The notes beneath the pieces were generated by a model. It had not been told where the DNA came from, did no database searches, and saw only the letters and a list, made by a program, of their open reading frames with translations. From Acidobacteriota bacterium (GTDB lineage: Bacteria > Acidobacteriota > UBA890 > WLXD01), in NCBI GenBank assembly GCA_965205505.1, contig CBDBHB010000009.1:2080001-2144000 (forward strand): a stretch of 64,000 nt of DNA, written 5' to 3'. Each line of letters begins with the position of its first letter. Position 1 is the stretch's first letter. Positions 5,751 through 24,640 of this stretch are shown here, one piece after another. The translations under genes were made by a program, and so were the position numbers.

Positions 5751-8718
5751 GGCTTGCGATCTCCGCCCCGACGGTTCCGCCATCCAATAGCGGCACGTGG
5801 ACCCTCTCGCCCATGCGGGCTCGCCCGCCCACGATGAGCGCCAGGGCGATCGAGCGGCCGAGACAGGCGCTGAAATAACTCGACGAAACGTGGCCGATCA
5901 TCGGGGTCGGAATCGAAGCCGATGCAGTCTCGACGATCTGTCCACCCTCCGGCAACACCTCGGCGGGCTCGTCGGTCAGAAGGCCGACCAGCTGTTTGCG
6001 GTCCTCGCGAACGGAATCCGGGCGCGAGAGCGAGCGTCTGCCCAGGAAGTCCTTGTGCGTCGAGACGAACCGCTCCATGCCGAGGTCTATGGGGTTGACG
6101 GAACCATCCGTGTCGTGCCCCACGACGATGTAGCCCTTTTCGGCGCGCAGGATGTGCAGGGCCTCGGTGCCGTACGGCGTTATGTCATGCTGTCGTCCGG
6201 CTTCCAGGAGCGTGTCCCAGACGGTCCGTGCGTAGTTGGCCGAGACGTTGACCTCGTACGTGAGCTCACCGCTGAAGCTGATGCGACAGACCCGCGCCGG
6301 CACGCCCGCCACCGTGCCGTCCCGAACCGCCATGAAGGGAAAGGCCGCGCGCGAAAAATCGATATCATCGCACAGCTTGGCGATCACGCTGCGGCTATGC
6401 GGTCCCACGACCGCGATGTTGGCCCAGTGGTCCGTCACCGAGGTCAGATAGACCTTCAGCTCCGGCCATTCCGTCTGCAGCCAACGCTCCAGCCAGGCCA
6501 CTACCGACGACGCCCCGCCGGTCGTCGTGTGCATCAGGTAATGGTCCTCGGCGAGCCGAGCCGTGACGCCATCGTCCATGACCATGCCGTCCTCGCCCAG
6601 CATGAGACCGTAGCGGCAGCGACCGACCGCCAGGTTGCTCCAATCGTTGGTGTACACCCGATTGAAGAGCTCGGCGGCGTCCGCACCCCGAACGTCGATC
6701 TTGCCAAGGGTGGACTGATCGACGAGGCACACGCCGTTGCGCGCCGCGAGGCACTCCCGATTCACCGCATCGTGCATCGACTCGCCGGGGCACGGGTAGT
6801 ACCAGGGTCGCTTCCACTGCCCGACGTCCTCAAACTCGGCGCCGGCCTCGACGTGCCACTGATAGAGCGCCGTTTTGCGTACCGGATCGAACAGGGGCCC
6901 CTGATCACGGCCCGCCAGTGCACCGAAGCTGATCGGGGTGTACGCCGGCCGGAACTTGGTGGTGCCAACGGAAGGGATGTCCACCCCCAGGGCTTGGGCC
7001 AGGATCCCCATGGCGTTGATGCTGGAGAGCTTGCCCTGATCCGTGCCCATCGCAAGCGTCGTGTATCGCTTGACGAGCTCGACCGAATCGAACCCCTCCC
7101 GCACGGCCAACACGATGTCCGCTGCGGAGACGTCCTCCTGCAAGTCGACGAACTGCTTGTGCTCGCGGGCGATCGGAAGGCGCGATGGCACCAGCCACAT
7201 GGGTATCGGTTGCTCTTCCACTTCGTCGGCGGTGGCGGGGACCTTCGCCTCGGGGCCGCGGGCAAAACCAGCGGCCTCGGCCGCCGCGGCGCCCGCGGCA
7301 AAACCCTCCCTCAGGCACCCACGCAGTGTGAAGGTGCCATTACAGGCGCCGGCCGAGCGTTCGGCCTGGACCGACTCGCCCGGCACGAAACAGGCCTTCT
7401 CCTCATGCCAGCGCGCCCTGCCGCCCGATTGGGAGTGCAGGTGAACCGTTGGAGTCCAGCCACCGGAAACCGCAACCAGATCGCAGCGTATCTTTCGGGC
7501 GTCTCCTTCCACCTCGTCCGCCGTCGCATTCAGGCGCATGATGTCGACGCCCCTGACGCGTTTCTTGCCTTGCACATCGACGATGGCGTGACCACCGATC
7601 ACCTCGATGCCCCGCCGCCTCGTCCGGGCCGGTAGATCACCATCCGGTTGCAGCCGAACGTCGATGACCGCGGCCACCGGAATGTCGGCGCGGGCGAGAT
7701 CCAACGCCGTCCGATAGGCGCCGTCGTTGTTGGTGAAGACGACGGCCCGCGAGCCCGGCGCGACGGCATACCGGTTCACGTAGGTCGATGCCGCCGACGC
7801 CAGCATGTTTCCTGGCCGGTCGTTGTTGGGGAAGACGAGAGGGCGCTCGATCGCACCCGCGGCGAGGACGACCTGCTTGGCGCGCACCCGCCAGAGCCTT
7901 TCACGCGGCCGAGTCGGGTCGCCATCCACGAGGCCGTCGCTCGACCGCTCGAGGATCGCCACGAAGCCCTCGTCGTAGAACCCGAAGGCCGTGCTGCGCG
8001 GCAGTAGGCGAACCTCCGCCATCCCGCGCAACCTTCCCATCACCGCCGTCGCCCATTCCATAGCAGGGACGCCATCGATGAGCTGGCGACCGCTCAGCAG
8101 GCCGCCACCGAGCTCCGACTGCTCGTCGGCGAGGATGACCCGCGCGCCCGTACTACCGGCTGCCAGCGCTGCGGCGAGGCCGGCGGGGCCGGCGCCCACC
8201 ACCAGCACCTCACAATGAGCGTTGACCTTGTCGTAGCGATCGGGGTCCGGCTCCTGCGGCGAAAGCCCCAGGCCGGCCGTTCGTCGAATCAGGTGCTCGT
8301 ACGTCCTCCACATGCGTTTCGGTCGCATGAAGGTCTTGTAGTAGAAGCCGGCCGGCAAGAGGCGGGAGAAGAGGCCGATCACGGCATGGACGTCGTACTC
8401 GACGCTCGGCCAGCAGTTCACGCTGGCGGCACGGAGGCCTTCATGGAGTTCGACCTGTGTGGCGAGGTGGTTCGGAAGCGTGCTCGCGCCGCTGCCCAGC
8501 TGAACGACCGCGTTCGGCTCCTCGGCACCGCTTCCGACGATGCCGCGGGGACGATGGTATTTGAAGCTGCGACCGACGATGCTGACCCCGTTCGCCAGCA
8601 ACGCCGAGGCCAACGTGTCGCCTTCATACCCCCCATAGGCTCGACCGTTGAAGGTGAACGAGATGGGCCTCTCGCGATCGATGCGACCGTCCTGGGCCAG
8701 CCGACGCGGCTGGGTCAC
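5710..8718 (-). CDS. soxA: Sarcosine oxidase subunit alpha
   Basis: 1002 aa; GDTLASALLANG, GRSFKYHRPRG, GAGPAG, KRYTT, GcvT-like C-terminal half. Confidence 0.96.
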   Translation of the reverse strand: MTQPRRLAQDGRIDRERPISFTFNGRAYGGYEGDTLASALLANGVSIVGRSFKYHRPRGIVGSGAEEPNAVVQLGSGASTLPNHLATQVELHEGLRAASVNCWPSVEYDVHAVIGLFSRLLPAGFYYKTFMRPKRMWRTYEHLIRRTAGLGLSPQEPDPDRYDKVNAHCEVLVVGAGPAGLAAALAAGSTGARVILADEQSELGGGLLSGRQLIDGVPAMEWATAVMGRLRGMAEVRLLPRSTAFGFYDEGFVAILERSSDGLVDGDPTRPRERLWRVRAKQVVLAAGAIERPLVFPNNDRPGNMLASAASTYVNRYAVAPGSRAVVFTNNDGAYRTALDLARADIPVAAVIDVRLQPDGDLPARTRRRGIEVIGGHAIVDVQGKKRVRGVDIMRLNATADEVEGDARKIRCDLVAVSGGWTPTVHLHSQSGGRARWHEEKACFVPGESVQAERSAGACNGTFTLRGCLREGFAAGAAAAEAAGFARGPEAKVPATADEVEEQPIPMWLVPSRLPIAREHKQFVDLQEDVSAADIVLAVREGFDSVELVKRYTTLAMGTDQGKLSSINAMGILAQALGVDIPSVGTTKFRPAYTPISFGALAGRDQGPLFDPVRKTALYQWHVEAGAEFEDVGQWKRPWYYPCPGESMHDAVNRECLAARNGVCLVDQSTLGKIDVRGADAAELFNRVYTNDWSNLAVGRCRYGLMLGEDGMVMDDGVTARLAEDHYLMHTTTGGASSVVAWLERWLQTEWPELKVYLTSVTDHWANIAVVGPHSRSVIAKLCDDIDFSRAAFPFMAVRDGTVAGVPARVCRISFSGELTYEVNVSANYARTVWDTLLEAGRQHDITPYGTEALHILRAEKGYIVVGHDTDGSVNPIDLGMERFVSTHKDFLGRRSLSRPDSVREDRKQLVGLLTDEPAEVLPEGGQIVETASASIPTPMIGHVSSSYFSACLGRSIALALIVGGRARMGERVHVPLLDGGTVGAEIASPVFYDPQGARQNV

Positions 8719-18939: not shown

Positions 18940-19647
18940 CTACCCTCCACTACAGGGTTTGAGGGTGACCCAGATGAGCTCGATCGGCTCGTCGCCGTTG
19001 TTGCCCGAGTCGTGCTGCTCCGACAGTTCGACGGCCTCCATCCAGCCGACAGAACCGTCGGGCGAAGGCCGGGTGCCGACTCTCTCGCTGCCATCGCGAC
19101 GCCCGGACCACACACCACCCTTGACATGAACGTAGACCTGCTCGCCCGGGTGGGAGTGCACCCCCTCCCACTGCCCCGGCTCGACGACGAACTTCTGCAC
19201 CACGACGTGATCGTTCTCCAGCAGCAGTTCGCCCGGAATGTTCGGATAAAACGTGCCGGTGTGATGGTTCGCCACTAACGTGCAAGGTTTGAGGGTGATC
19301 CAGACCAACTCGATTGGGGTGTCTCCGGTGTTGCCGGAATTGTGTTGCTCCGACAGATCGATGGCATCCATCCATCCGACGGAGCCGGCGGGCGAAGGCT
19401 GGGTGCCGATTCTCTCGCGGCCGCCACGACGCCCAGACCACACACCGCCCTTGATGGTCACCCAGAGCTGGTTGCCTGGGTGTGGATGGACCCCCTCCCA
19501 CTGCCCCGGCTCGACGACGAACTTCTGCACCACGACGCGATCGTTCTCCAGCAGCAGCTCGCCCGGAATATCCGGATAAAAGGTACCGATCTCCTGGCCG
19601 GCAAAGAGCAATCCGGGGAGCGCCAGGATGACGGCGGCCAGCATCAT
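18940..19647 (-). CDS. Secreted protein with two tandem cupin domains
   Basis: Signal peptide MMLAAVILALPGLLFA; two similar domains LLENDxVVV...GVHxHPG...HxSGNxG. Confidence 0.8.
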   Translation of the reverse strand: MMLAAVILALPGLLFAGQEIGTFYPDIPGELLLENDRVVVQKFVVEPGQWEGVHPHPGNQLWVTIKGGVWSGRRGGRERIGTQPSPAGSVGWMDAIDLSEQHNSGNTGDTPIELVWITLKPCTLVANHHTGTFYPNIPGELLLENDHVVVQKFVVEPGQWEGVHSHPGEQVYVHVKGGVWSGRRDGSERVGTRPSPDGSVGWMEAVELSEQHDSGNNGDEPIELIWVTLKPCSGG

Positions 19648-19805
19648 ACGGATTGGGTTTCGGGTCGCTGCACTCGCGGGTGCTCGGCACGGAACGCAGC
19701 ATCGGTTGCTGCTCGTGAGGTCCATGGACGGCATCAGCTTGACCTGACCCCCCAAAACGGATCCAGAGGTAATCTCACGATCTGGGTCGAAAAGGGGAGG
19801 TCAGA

Positions 19806-20084
19806 ATGCCGACGAAGAGGCACAGCGCCGAGCAGATCGTACGCAAGCTCCGGGAGGCTGAAGTGGAGCTGGCGCAAGGCGGGACGGTCAAGGATGCCTG
19901 CCGCAAGCTAGCGATCACCGAGCACACCTACTATCGGTGGCGGCGGGAGTACGGGGGGCTGAAGGTCAACCAGGCCAGAAGGCTCAAGCAGCTGGAGAAA
20001 GAAAACGCCCGGCTCAAGAAACTGGTGGCGGAGAAAGAGCTCGACCTGTCGATCCTGAAGGAAGTCGCGGAGGGAAACTTCTGA
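19806..20084 (+). CDS. IS3 transposase OrfA
   Basis: HTH ([11 protein letters not shown]) plus leucine zipper; ends GGGAAACTTCTGA at the frameshift window. Confidence 0.93.
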
Positions 20085-20965
20085 GCCCAGCTCGACGGCG
20101 CGAGGCGGTGGCGCATGTACAGGGGCGGCTGGGCGTCTCCGAGAGGCGGGCGTGCCGGGTACTGAAACAACCACGCACGACACACAGGTACATGCCAAGA
20201 GAACCGGGCGATGAGCAGATGTTGACGGAGCGGATCGTGGATCTAGCCCGACAATACGGGCGCTACGGGTATCGGCGAGTGACGGCGTTGTTGCGTATGG
20301 AGGGCTGGTGGGTGAACCACAAACGAGTGCAGCGTATCTGGAGGCGTGAGGGGCTGAAAGTACCGACAAAGCAGCCCAAACGAGCCCGGCTGTGGCTCAG
20401 CGATGGCTCGTGCATCCGGCTGCGACCACAGCGCAAAGATCACGTCTGGGCGTATGACTTCGTCCATCACCGGACGCACGAGGGTCGGGCTATGAGGCTG
20501 CTGACGATCGTCGATGAGTACACACGAGAAAGCCTGGCGATCGACGTGGCACGGAAGCTCAACTGTGAGGACGTGCTCGAGCGGCTCGGGTGGTTGTTCG
20601 TGCACCGGGGCATACCTGAGCACATCCGGTCCGATAACGGACCGGAGTTCACCGCCGAGGCGGTTCGCGACTGGCTCGGTAGGCTCGGTGTGGGCACGCT
20701 GTTCATCGAGCCGGGCTCGCCGTGGGAGAACGGCTACGTGGAGAGCTTCAACGGCAAGCTCCGAGACGAGCTGCTCAACGGCGAGATCTTCTACACGCTC
20801 AAGGAGGCAAAGGTTCTGATCGAGAGATGGAGGCAGCAGTACAACCGCATGCGACCGCACAGCTCGTTGGGCTACCGACCACCGGCCCCGGAGGCGCTGT
20901 TGTTGAAGCCGGCTACGCTCCGCTTCGCCGGCCTCAACAACCCCTTGTCAGCACCGAGTTACTGA
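20081..20965 (+). CDS. IS3 transposase OrfB (DDE), expressed by -1 frameshift
   Basis: [40 protein letters not shown]. Confidence 0.93.
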
Positions 20966-21291: not shown

Positions 21292-21821
21292 ATGCAACCC
21301 GGCACCAAAGGCCCCTACGAGATCACCGAGCAGCTCGGCGCTGGCGGCATGGGTGAGGTGTACCTGGCGCAGGACACACGCCTGGGCCGCAAGGTGGCCA
21401 TCAAGGTGCTTCCCGCCGAGTTCGCCTCTGACGGCGTTGCCGACGTCGAGACCGGTGAGTACTCGTCTCTGTTTCCCGGTTGGTCGCCAGCGTACGTCGA
21501 GGGTGGTTTCCTCATGTACGCGCAGGCCGACATGCTGATGATCCGTTCGTACGATCCCGACACGCCGCCCGCCCCCCCCCCCCCGAGGTGGCCCAGCCGG
21601 GCGTGTTGAGCATCCAGTGGGGCTCGACGCCGAACGCCCTGTACTCCGTGTCGACGAACGGAACGCTGGCGTTCGTCCCCGGTTCCGGGCCGTCGGCCGG
21701 TGTCCGCGGGCGACTTGCGCTCGTCGACGGCGATGGGAACGCGAATCCCCTCACCGAGACGGGTAGCGATCCCATTTATCCACGCTTCACGCCCGATGGC
21801 GGCGCCGTAACGGTGGCGTGA
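21292..21821 (+). pseudogene. Internally deleted Ser/Thr kinase with TolB/PD40-like propeller remnant
   Basis: [26 protein letters not shown] jumps to WSPAY...SVSTNGTLAF...YPRFTPDG; frame change at the C13 tract. Confidence 0.75.
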
Positions 21822-21960: not shown

Positions 21961-22368
21961 AGGGGACTCGGTAGTTGGTCGGGGTCATGGGCTCTTGCCG
22001 GCTTTGGCGCGCAGGCCGGCCAGGCGCTTAGCCAGCCTGTCTGGAACCAGCCCAGGGGCCTTTGCTTGTCGTTCGTACCGCTCGAGTATCGCGAGCTCGT
22101 CGGCTGGCTTCTTCTTCTTCCGGTAGATGATCGCAAGTTGCTCGTAGTACCACGGAACCCCCCAGCCTTCGCCCCAGGCGGATGTCTCGGCCTCTGTGGC
22201 GTCCACCAGGCGCAGGAGAAGCGCCTCCGCGCCATCGAGGTCGCCTGCGCGCTTGAGGCGAAGAACTTCCTCTGCGTAGGTCGCGTAGTGCCGTCCGTCG
22301 ACGAAGCCAGGCTTGGCCATCAGCGGCAGCCCCTCACTAGGGGGCTCGGTAGGTGGTCGGGTCATGGG
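21961..22368. repeat. ~30-bp direct repeat pair (21961-21991 and 22339-22368)
   Basis: aggggactcggtagttggtcggggtcatggg versus agggggctcggtaggtggtcgggtcatggg. Confidence 0.75.
21985..22320 (-). CDS. Hypothetical helical (TPR-like) protein
   Basis: GRHYATY...PWYYEQLAIIYRK...ELAILERY; GAGGGG RBS-like site upstream. Confidence 0.7.
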   Translation of the reverse strand: MAKPGFVDGRHYATYAEEVLRLKRAGDLDGAEALLLRLVDATEAETSAWGEGWGVPWYYEQLAIIYRKKKKPADELAILERYERQAKAPGLVPDRLAKRLAGLRAKAGKSP

Positions 22369-22411
22369 ACGGAACGCGCCGCAGCCGTGAAGGGGCGCCG
22401 GATCAAGCGCG

Positions 22412-22689
22412 GCTACATGCGAGACCCCTCAAGCGCGAGACGCTCGTGCCGCTGTTGATCTCGGACCAGGCATCGGAGCGACGTGGCCTGCCCGCCAGCG
22501 GTCTCTCCGCCGGCGTCCCGCGCCGAGAGGCAAAACATCATCTAGTCGCAACGGGGTGAGACTCGGACACAGCTACATGCCCGACCCCCTCAGCGCGAGA
22601 CTCCCGCCGCCAGGGGCTGAGGAAGGACTACTGCTAAGCCCGCAAGCGGCGGTGGGGGTCGGCGGCCTAGCGGGTCCCGCGCCGAGAGG
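22412..22689 (-). repeat. Two tandem ~160-bp units with inverted arms; candidate structured ncRNAs
   Basis: gctacatgc..cccctc(a)agcgcgagac and gtcccgcgccgagagg each occur twice, 160 and 159 bp apart; the arms are complementary. Confidence 0.65.
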
Positions 22690-22795
22690 TACCCGATAAT
22701 TGTAGACCCCTAGCGCCCCGACCGGATAGTGCCTAGCGAATTTCGACTTCGCCGCGATGTTCCTGGCTGAGGCCGGCGCGCTGTTTGCCGTTCCT

Positions 22796-23164
22796 CTACC
22801 CTCGCCGTCGAGCGCCGGCCGTATCCTCGATCGCCCGCCGAGCTTCAGCCGGCGTCACATCAGCACCCCGCAGATGCGCATCCATCAGGTCGGCGATCCA
22901 GCGCCGCAGCAGCTCCCGCCGCACGACCTTCGCCTTGGTCTTCGTCGGCGCCAGGACCTCTGCAATAGAACCTAGCGAAGCGCGATCAGGCGGGAGATAG
23001 CGACCACACCGGTAGCCGCTCATGGTGCCCTGCGTGATGCCGAGATCGGTGGCGATTGTGCGCATGGAGGCGGGGTGATCGTCGATGAGCTTGCCGAGGT
23101 AGGAGCCGAACTGGCGGAGGGGGTAGGCGAGGGGGCGGGCGAAGGTGCTGCGGCCGCCTCTCAC
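22796..23164 (-). CDS. XRE-like HTH protein
   Basis: SMRTIATDLGITQGTMSGYRCGRYLP helix-turn-helix pattern. Confidence 0.6.
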   Translation of the reverse strand: MRGGRSTFARPLAYPLRQFGSYLGKLIDDHPASMRTIATDLGITQGTMSGYRCGRYLPPDRASLGSIAEVLAPTKTKAKVVRRELLRRWIADLMDAHLRGADVTPAEARRAIEDTAGARRRG

Positions 23165-23170
23165 TAGAGC

Positions 23171-23329
23171 CTACGGGCCGGCCTGTCCGCCGACGTTGTC
23201 AGCAATCCGTTCGACTGCCTTGACGAGGCGCGCGGCTAGCCCCATTAGGTAGATGAATAGGGCGATCCAGATCAGCCCGAACAACACAGGGAACAGTCCC
23301 ATCGCAGCCATCATCGGCATGTCCATCAT
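23171..23329 (-). CDS. Small single-pass membrane protein
   Basis: GLFPVLFGLIWIALFIYLMGLAARLVKAVERIA. Confidence 0.6.
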   Translation of the reverse strand: MMDMPMMAAMGLFPVLFGLIWIALFIYLMGLAARLVKAVERIADNVGGQAGP

Positions 23330-23460
23330 GTTGCTACCGCCGTCGACGATGCACCGCAAAGGCTGCTCAGCCTAGCGGAATAGATCGGCTCTCACCACGT
23401 GAGAGCAGCCGGGCGACCTGCGAGAGCCTTTCGTGACCCACTCAATCCTTCCCTTCGGGA

Positions 23461-24107: not shown

Positions 24108-24640
24108 TCATGAGCCCTCCTTACCCGTCGATTCCCGCAACTCTTTCAGGAGCCGGCCAACTTGGTCGGCGTGCGGAGATTCGATCTCAATGAAGATCTT
24201 GAGGGCCTGCTCATGAAACTCGATGGCCTTGCGGGTCTCGCCGAGGGCGGCGTAGGCGCTCCCGAGGTTGCCGAGGTCATTGCCCCTCGCTCCTCCGGTC
24301 GCCGATCTCGCGAGAGATGGCCAGGACTGTTCATGAAACTCGATGGCCTTGCGGGTCTCGCCGAGGGCGGCGTAGGCATTCCCAAGGTTGCCGAGGGCAC
24401 TGCCTTCGGCTGTCCGGTCACCGATTCGCGAGAGATGGCCAGAGACTGTTCATAAAACTCGATTGCCTTGCGGGTCTCGCCGAGGCCGGCGTAGGCTTCC
24501 CGAGGTTGCCGAGGGCATTGCCTTCGCTCCTCCGGTCGCCGATCTCGCGAGAGATGGCCAGAGACTGTTCATGAAACTCGATGGCCTTGCGGGTCTCGCC
24601 GAGGGCGACGTAGGCGTTCCCGAGGTTGCCGAGGGCTTTA
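24108..24640 (-). pseudogene. TPR-repeat protein C-terminal remnant
   Basis: Four near-identical 40-aa repeats (GNLGxAYAALGETRKAIEFHEQ...SREIGDRR) at spacings of 120, 119 and 119 bp, so frameshifted; 5' part missing. Confidence 0.85.

Follow-up and report, generated by a model that had tools for sequence, protein, structure and literature searches.

The window considered here, meaning the whole 64,000-nucleotide stretch of Acidobacteriota DNA that was analysed, carries two related hairpin elements (U1 and U2) in a stretch that lies between gltB and the genes for tRNA-Glu and tRNA-Lys and is not syntenic in relatives. Read along the minus strand, the order is a 62-amino-acid ORF, an XRE-like HTH gene, U1, U2, a leader, a gene for a small TPR-like protein, a leader remnant, a broken Ser/Thr kinase gene and an IS3-family element (Table 1). 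The first-pass annotation had placed the units downstream of an HTH gene, and weak family matches agree with this placement. Indeed, weak HTH matches are all that the genes of this module return from Pfam, PHROGs, PADLOC and NCBIfam, and the 62-amino-acid ORF matches no family in any of the four. The XRE-like gene is kept in three modules of this genome (G000), with paralogues at loci L022 and L023, and its homologue in a sister species (genome G004) matches HTH_31 with an E-value of 4.3e-5.

The TPR-like protein downstream is 111-126 amino acids long and likely starts at M16 (position 22320), judging from alignment of its homologues. It occurs in five of 401 sampled Acidobacteriota genomes, namely this one (five copies), G004 (10 copies) and three others, and 289 of 400 scored metagenome candidates are homologues at E <= 1e-3. 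A structural model (pLDDT 75) gives weak, generic TPR fold matches (E 0.016, TM 0.52-0.55), and neither the protein nor a homologue is present in the ESM Atlas. The family is widespread in metagenomes and unannotated, and one homologue from Actinomycetota is fused to a HIRAN domain. The conserved leader between U2 and this gene, L1, also follows units U5 and U8 and three units of G004; it is conserved as nucleotides, since indels shift the reading frame. Searches for the RNA beside distant TPR-like homologues found none at four loci from three other Acidobacteriota, and 80 metagenome loci gave just three matches (E 1.9-4.7, 10.7-12.7 bits), so that the RNA lies outside the conserved context of the TPR-like protein.

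Several other features of the surroundings were noted. A second copy of the leader and start region of the TPR-like gene directly follows the gene's stop codon (21961-21991 versus 22339-22368, with 23 nt at 91% identity and 10 nt exact), with no intact gene behind it. The IS3-family element (rve, HTH_21; 19342-20965) has a 1.26-kb core found at more than 40 places in genome G003 at 91% identity and at several in G004 at 99-100%. Beside modules there are also Ser/Thr kinase N-termini that are broken or truncated (21292-21821 on the plus strand of the window; L021:6570-7115), and a 360-bp kinase N-terminal segment is present in dozens of copies, with about 90% identity, across the four genomes of the genus. 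Finally, a tandem repeat at 24207-24636 (period 119 nt, 3.6 copies, 90% matches) gives rise to ORF fragments on either strand and may be what is left of a gene for a repeat protein.

Table 1. Features of the unit-bearing stretch and the further units of the same genome. Positions are those of the window unless a contig (C8 or C9) is given.
Feature	Position	Strand	Basis or remark
Small hydrophobic ORF, 62 aa, XRE module	23171..23359	-	paralogue at L023:8383-8568
XRE-like HTH gene, 122 aa, upstream of units	22796..23164	-	phrog_638, E 9.6e-4
Upstream box TTCGCTAGGCACTAT, common to first-type units	22726..22740	-	genome scan
TACAAT, -10-like box 9 nt upstream of U1 arm	22699..22704	-	sequence
Unit U1, hairpin element (contig C9)	22569..22692	-	covariance-model matches, 90.1 bits (R1) and 92.1 bits (R2)
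U1 5' arm	22674-22689	-	
U1 interior	22602-22673	-	
U1 3' arm	22586-22601	-	
U1 conserved 3' tail (..GCAUGUAGC)	22572..22585	-	sequence comparison
Inter-unit spacer U1/U2	22534-22568		
TAGATG, degenerate box before U2, in spacer	22539..22544	-	sequence
Unit U2, hairpin element (contig C9)	22409..22533	-	covariance-model matches, 88.4 bits (R1) and 85.5 bits (R2); class B interior
U2 5' arm	22515-22530	-	
U2 3' arm	22425-22441	-	one bulged U
U2 conserved 3' tail	22412-22424	-	sequence comparison
Conserved leader L1 (start), U2 to downstream gene	22366..22408	-	runs into annotated ORF start
Small TPR-like helical protein gene, downstream	21985..22365	-	homologue alignment and model
Further unit	C8 565488-565609	-	
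Further unit	C8 566208-566332	-	
Further unit	C8 566397-566527	-	
Further unit	C8 812338-812465	+	
Further unit	C9 464854-464975	-	
Further unit	C9 470093-470218	-	
Truncated unit, 5' arm alone	C9 ~1846738-1846786	-	

Two tandem units and their relatives

A repeat finder run on the window recovers a 35-nt repeat (GCTACATGC...GCGAGAC) at 22412 and 22572, with 80% identity and a spacing of 160, together with an exact 16-mer (GTCCCGCGCCGAGAGG) at 22515 and 22674 with a spacing of 159. Both values agree with the period of 160/159 bp that had been reported for the two units. Both units have the same layout on the minus strand, with CCUCUCGGCGCGGGAC followed by 72-73 nt, GUCUCGCGCU(U)GAGGGG and finally GCAUGUAGC. 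The arms of U1 pair at 16 of 16 positions, three of them as G-U or U-G, exactly as the first-pass annotation had described. Its statement that the interiors are dissimilar needs qualification: they do differ, though not wholly, for both hold CCGC..GCGGGC and (C/G)AGCGGC, and these pair into an inner stem. The word 'array' does not fit, given that there are two units here and elsewhere at most three to five that are loosely clustered. The exact arm is confined to these two units within the window. If up to three mismatches are permitted, the window contains seven arm matches versus 4.06 expected, a count that is uninformative by itself.

When both strands are folded, the arms close both units in the minimum-energy structures of the minus strand (-63.8 and -66.0 kcal/mol), and the plus-strand folds are weaker (-53.0 and -60.9 kcal/mol). 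The minus strand thus folds better, as had been anticipated, but these energies are unexceptional for sequences of 65-70% G+C (z -1.16 and -0.92; 26 of 200 and 40 of 200 shuffles are at least as stable). The case for a conserved structure is consequently built on the comparison of copies and not on fold energy. In a transcript that ran through both units, pairing would also be possible between the 3' arm of U1 and the 5' arm of U2, over a 55-nt spacer.

The stretch was found in sequencing runs of 10 studies, none recorded as RNA. Contigs assembled from four runs of different studies cover the tandem pair (22074-22732) with 0-5 differences, which speaks to presence only. A T>G change at 22429 in the contigs of two of these four runs turns a U-A pair in the closing stem of U2 into U-C.

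By BLAST, motif scan and nhmmer over the whole genome, eight full units and one truncated unit were found in G000. In the truncated copy, a 5' arm lacking its 3' partner is joined to the leader of a gene for a membrane protein. Another copy of this membrane-protein gene (L023, about 7900-8000) has a degenerate box and no arm, and the start of the gene resembles the GAUGCCUGG of class B interiors described below. A covariance model built from the eight units (R1) matches two of 61 genomes, G000 and G004, which belong to the same genus, and none of the 59 other relatives. With a second model that has a hand-set inner stem (R2), we find eight units in G000, 14 in G004 and none in G001-G003 of the same genus. 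The genome search recommended in the first-pass annotation therefore did yield further units, but not longer arrays. Strict two-arm pattern scans gave no match among viral contigs and none among JGI metagenomes, where the pattern would catch at most 18 of the 21 known units; over a collection of genome contigs, the two-arm pattern found the sister species' own record alone. Likewise, blastn returned no match in phage and plasmid collections.

We also compared the units with known RNA classes. Infernal searches of 5 kb and of 341 nt against Rfam 15, in E-value mode with a limit of 10, gave no credible family match. The sole overlapping match, MIR4416, scores 16.5 bits against a gathering score of 70 and reflects spurious pairing between the 3' arm of U1 and the 5' arm of U2. 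The NAD+ (nadA) riboswitch was considered on account of its tandem bulged stems and ACCCC bulge in Acidobacteria and was set aside, with no Rfam match. A search of the window for tRNA and tmRNA genes found just tRNA-Glu and tRNA-Lys, 4 kb from the units. As far as the genome sequences tell, the element is an undescribed hairpin of about 120 bases, present in 8-14 copies per genome in two sister species of Acidobacteriota, where 'undescribed' refers to Rfam 15 and the collections searched.

Pairing conserved on one strand

Individual folds of the units share a rod-like architecture: a 16-bp closing stem (P1) leads to an internal loop of about 15-22 nt on the 5' side, next to an inner stem (P2; CGCCGCU(A)G with C(U)AGCGGCG) and then to an apical hairpin that differs between copies in both sequence and length. 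We assessed this architecture in an alignment of 21 rows, 20 of them distinct (A4), which had been fitted to R2. In it, 94.3% of 491 cells are paired, versus 37-61% in controls in which the pairing was slid, and none of 500 shuffles reaches the observed value on any of five measures. P1 (16 pairs) is paired in 98.7% of cells and is conserved in sequence, not in pairing alone, and the 7-pair core of P2 is paired in 88.1%. Changes on both sides of a pair occur in eight of the 25 pairs overall, including five of the seven in the P2 core, although the copies are all paralogues, drawn from two closely related genomes, and such counts are therefore not independent events.

The distribution of non-Watson-Crick pairs in P1 reveals which strand matters. 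Among the 20 distinct copies, P1 contains 242 Watson-Crick cells, 70 G-U cells, two A-C cells and two others, with G-U in 10 of the 16 columns and A-C in two. Because the 70 G-U cells would be A-C mismatches on the plus strand, selection acts on a single-stranded form of the minus strand. Consistent with this, forward covariance-model matches score 45-118 bits, far above the reverse complement, which reaches at most 25.5 bits. The pairing is selected on the minus strand, which is the gene-sense strand, and the strand-specific folding proposed from U1 is upheld across the family. It is important to note that strand specificity is no proof of RNA, since ssDNA hairpins also tolerate G-T.

Two other accounts can be weighed against these data. 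The copies might have no function of their own and be leftovers of an accessory module that underwent repeated segmental duplication and gene conversion, with the palindrome kept merely by youth. Such an origin would suit the narrow distribution (two of 61 genomes), the identity of 94-99% between some flanks in G000 and G004, and the unexceptional fold energies. However, the interiors are now about 70% identical or belong to different classes while P1 has stayed paired almost throughout, neutral decay would yield G-U and A-C cells alike, and P2 pairing has survived the two-sided changes in its core. We consider this account improbable. The second holds that the arms are inverted sites, about 90 bp apart, in double-stranded DNA and serve as an operator for the XRE-like regulator. 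Although an XRE-like gene lies directly upstream in three G000 modules and the arm sequence itself is highly conserved, most units have no adjoining XRE-like gene, and a duplex site explains neither the asymmetry between G-U and A-C nor the conserved pairing of P2 and the apical stem; an operator is thus highly improbable.

About three or four classes can be distinguished among the interiors, which are 55-85 nt long. Class A is marked by ..GGGAC..AGAGGGAG.., class B contains ..GAUGCCUGG.CCGAGAUCACAGCGG. and class C precedes an ORF beginning MMPFTKQQ, with the U1 interior standing alone outside all three. This is not what one expects of a scaffold that presents a variable, guide-like insert, as had been suggested, given that the interiors form classes with a common inner stem and are not unique. 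Comparison of the interiors with the host genome points the same way, giving a single weak match to another gene. This is an exact 18-nt match of the U1 interior at G000:C9:426373-426390 (E 0.004), antisense to a gene for an MFS-like membrane protein, and it is probably due to chance in G+C-rich sequence coding for Gly and Ala. We note that U1 RNA could pair with the MFS-like mRNA through these 18 nt.

Flanks, gene context and DNA-level explanations

Beyond the left arm about 15-45 nt are conserved, and beyond the right arm about 14 nt. Both flanks are conserved yet unlike each other, and the palindrome ends at the arms; duplex energies of the 22-nt flanks beyond P1 are no better than those of shuffles in 19 units. 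The left flank contains TAnnAT, at a distance of 7-9 nt from the arm, in all but one of 19 units (TAGGAT in 12, TAAAAT in two, TAAGAT in two, TACAAT in one and TACGAT in one). The TACAAT of U1 had been noticed in the first-pass annotation, where it was placed about 10 nt upstream at 22692-22697; the box is present, but it lies at the position given in Table 1. In TAnnAT, T1, A2 and T6 are fixed and the middle bases vary, which would be the pattern expected of selection on a -10 hexamer. The tRNA-Lys gene of the window has TTGCCG-N17-TAACCT 7 nt before its 5' end, so that -10 boxes of this type appear to be used in this genome. By eye, there is no canonical -35 element at 16-18 nt from the box before the units, a consensus promoter scan reported no promoter-like sites, and no U-tract terminator follows P1 on the minus strand.

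Further out, the flanks can be sorted into types. 'First-type' units have TTCGCTAGGCACTA in common, which with at most one mismatch is confined to unit loci in the genome. For the upstream box listed in Table 1, a 15-mer shared by these units, this gives four sites, all before units (a fifth unit-linked site has two mismatches). 'Tandem-type' units have GCTGTAGCCGAGTCGCCCCCGTTGCGAC in common, and GTTGCGACTAGGATG takes the position of the TAGATG of U2 in other tandem-type spacers. About 60 nt upstream of the arm, inspection by eye also shows GGAAC-N17/18-GTT (ATT in the window, at 22741-22775) in the window and in 4-5 other first-type units; we take GGAAC-N17-GTT to resemble ECF-sigma promoters. 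In two G004 units, homopolymer tracts lie upstream of the -10-like box, a poly-G of about 19 nt at L043 (C7, upstream of 139984) and a poly-C of about 26 nt at L038 (C2, about 363600), and these could reflect slipped-strand phase variation or an assembly artefact. On the right, most units carry the tail CCUCGCAUGUAGCC, after which at least three types of sequence follow, namely the leader of the TPR-like gene, a tandem spacer or CACCCCGAG....

Upstream types, interior classes and tails are freely recombined among the copies. All-against-all BLAST reveals homology blocks that often start or stop at about -15, +15 to +23 and +82 to +110. For example, a 125-bp block (-15 to +110) of one G004 unit is 97.6% identical to U5, with an upstream region that resembles that of U8. 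All copies found have flanks of the family type.

Most units are directed towards small accessory genes, within mosaic regions rich in IS elements. Applying our ORF filter, we find a same-strand ORF start within 500 nt downstream of 12 of the 22 units. A further four units precede the 89-amino-acid MMPFTKQQ ORF, which is coiled-coil-like, one faces an opposite-strand ORF and three have no ORF within 1.5 kb. The genes that follow other units encode a Gly/Met-rich membrane protein, the 89-amino-acid protein, an XRE-like protein and a fragment of a DNA methylase, and their neighbourhoods contain IS4/5, IS3 and IS6 transposases and a tyrosine recombinase. Since U3 adjoins a divergent kinase fragment, this unit cannot be the 3' end of an upstream gene.

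Could the units instead be mobile or recombinogenic ssDNA hairpins of the REPIN, MITE or attC type, with the promoter-like box incidental? The architecture invites the comparison: conserved 16-nt inverted arms enclose a variable centre, the copies are many, some in tandem pairs, the surroundings are IS-rich mosaics and homology blocks often begin or end at the arms. The nearly identical 125-bp block within other flanks is of the same kind, as are two G004 loci at which units form inverted pairs around a segment, and G000 encodes an integron integrase (C8:1214363-1215181; 350 bits, above the curated cut-off). The copies themselves favour this explanation less, given that every unit found has flanks of the family type, that conservation is asymmetric beyond the arms and that units are mostly co-oriented with the downstream gene. 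With up to two mismatches, the arm motif occurs at the unit loci and at sites that are scattered and unpaired; among the IS elements of G000 whose ends were inspected, none was seen to end in the arm pair.

Nor did a partner enzyme emerge. Genes for Y1 transposase or RAYT (PF01797) are present in none of three genomes (G000, G004 and G003), in a search whose controls gave matches in six of 14 genomes; no Y2 transposase was found either, in a search whose control was silent everywhere. The integron integrase has no unit within about 19 kb, and the 39 kb around it contain no unit and no Rfam match, nor is a repeat array evident on the L084 side, the side scanned. G003 has an IntI-like gene (its integron integrase copy scores near the cut-off) yet no units, and G004 has a fragment with a stop codon. 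Taken together, these null results for enzymes and boxes lower the probability that the units belong to the REPIN, MITE, retron or attC classes and are compatible with an unknown enzyme acting on an ssDNA hairpin. We regard a DNA-level hairpin repeat as the main rival explanation, though a less likely one than an RNA.

Known classes were also examined individually. The terminal core boxes of attC sites, R'' and R', read RYYYAAC ... GTTRRRY and pair with each other at the hairpin base. By eye, the arms CCTCTCGGCGCGGGAC and GTCCCGCGCTGGGGGG lack these boxes, including at the arm ends, on both strands, and the sole GTT (GGTTACC) is on the 5' side with no AAC partner. A MITE is disfavoured by a conserved block that extends past the arms, by flanks that are not complementary beyond chance and by the absence, by eye, of a target-site duplication at block ends. 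With RAYT and target-site duplications both absent from our searches, a dispersed REP or MITE family of the kind that the first-pass annotation had also considered is less likely. Retron msr-msd elements were rejected as well: G000 has RVT_1 just at C9:297046 and C8:538221, with 27 kb between a unit and the nearer of the two, and G004, despite its 14 units, has none. The conserved parts of the two units are inverted arms, not the short direct repeats alternating with unique spacers of a CRISPR array. The original impression that no CRISPR, attC or tRNA pattern is present was thus sound, and it extends to the Rfam families.

Toxin-antitoxin systems were considered too. A type III (ToxI-like) system would have tandem direct repeats ahead of an endoribonuclease toxin gene; the genes downstream of the units proved varied (TPR-like protein, membrane protein, XRE-like protein and DNA methylase), no nuclease was found and PADLOC gave no matches for the genes of the window. 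A type I system of the Sib/Ibs kind, which would carry a conserved small hydrophobic ORF inside the repeat or opposite it, appears unlikely, as indels shift every frame and no common short ORF is apparent by eye.

A proposed promoter-linked structured RNA and its meaning

We consider the best explanation, with about an even chance of being correct, to be that the element specifies a structured RNA linked to a promoter, which would be either one of a set of sibling sRNAs or a hairpin in the 5' leader of accessory genes. The units would then be copies of a gene-like element, specific to this lineage, whose product is a structured RNA of about 105-120 nt. Transcription would start a few bases before P1, and the hairpin would therefore form the extreme 5' end of the transcript. 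For the minus strand, we predict a start 0-3 nt before CCUCUC and either an end near GCAUGUAGCC or continuation into the downstream gene. The hairpin might then end up as a stable small RNA, making the units a 'sibling' sRNA family, or it might head the mRNA of the downstream gene as a leader that sets stability or processing, for example by protecting the 5' end or by providing an RNase III site. The sequence-conserved P1 would probably be recognised by a protein. Recombination among family members spreads and reshuffles the copies in IS-rich mosaic regions that vary between genomes. Against a promoter-linked RNA stand the missing canonical -35 element, the degenerate box of U2, the missing U-tract terminator and the unexceptional fold energies, and also the T>G change that breaks a P1 pair in U2 and the fact that A4 was fitted to its model.

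Among characterized elements, CREE of Neisseria offers one parallel. It is described as a small, intergenic, multi-copy element bounded by inverted repeats, associated with promoter activity beside genes and with a transcript hairpin that is bound or cut by RNase III (PMC2649163). In the traits outlined there, the present element is alike: it too is small, intergenic, multi-copy and bounded by inverted repeats, with a promoter-like box by genes. CREE is present in hundreds of copies, compared with the 8-14 observed here, and there is no sequence similarity between the two. Furthermore, the promoter-like box of the present element is outside the inverted repeat, its centre is variable and its flanks are conserved and asymmetric, and no target duplication is seen.

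Sibling sRNAs encoded in tandem, each with its own promoter, include PrrF1/PrrF2, OmrA/OmrB and the Sib/QUAD repeats of E. coli. The units resemble them as homologous sequences of about 100-150 nt that are both tandem and dispersed and are narrowly distributed. Transcripts and terminators have been demonstrated for these sRNAs, whereas our units have no U-tract terminator, a single long stem that would close the whole RNA and, by eye, no conserved small toxin ORF. The stabilizer hairpins at the 5' ends of mRNAs, such as that of the ompA 5' UTR, are short single stems. In both cases a stem would lie a few bases from the presumed transcript start and be followed by a leader (about 100 nt here) and a gene, but the present element forms a rod of 105 nt whose inner features are conserved, and it is also found in tandem with no intervening gene.

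The DNA-level parallels are likewise incomplete. REPINs are inverted REP doublets that are mobilised by RAYT transposases, form hairpins and occur in clusters (PMC3337134, PMC3116915). The units share hairpin formation and clustering with REPINs, and they differ in that neither genome has RAYT or Y1, the copy number is low, the conserved flanks are non-palindromic and the units are co-oriented with genes. With attC sites they have in common conserved ends, a centre that varies in sequence and length, folding on one strand, small cassette-like genes nearby and an IntI in the genome. However, they lack the core boxes, they lie upstream of genes with a promoter-like box and not at 3' ends, and none is near intI.

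A more speculative, and decidedly improbable, possibility is that P1 is a handle for a protein and the inner 55-85 nt an exchangeable module, which would amount to a new kind of cassette system. Such a system could consist of decoy or guide RNAs, all bound by the same partner but each offering it a different inner hairpin. Alternatively, the units could be ssDNA sites of a non-integron recombinase that shuffles promoter-plus-gene cassettes in these Acidobacteriota.

The Acidobacteriota are abundant and little studied, and to our knowledge almost nothing is known about their small RNAs and repeat elements. The narrow distribution, in two sister species among the genomes searched, limits the general reach of the finding. 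Even so, these genomes carry a strand-specific hairpin with a conserved stem and its own promoter-like box, placed before different accessory genes in variable regions. If the element acts at the DNA level, it would be a hairpin repeat that lacks all of the known partner enzymes. If it is transcribed, it would represent a new RNA family and might give horizontally acquired genes a portable signal for expression or stability.
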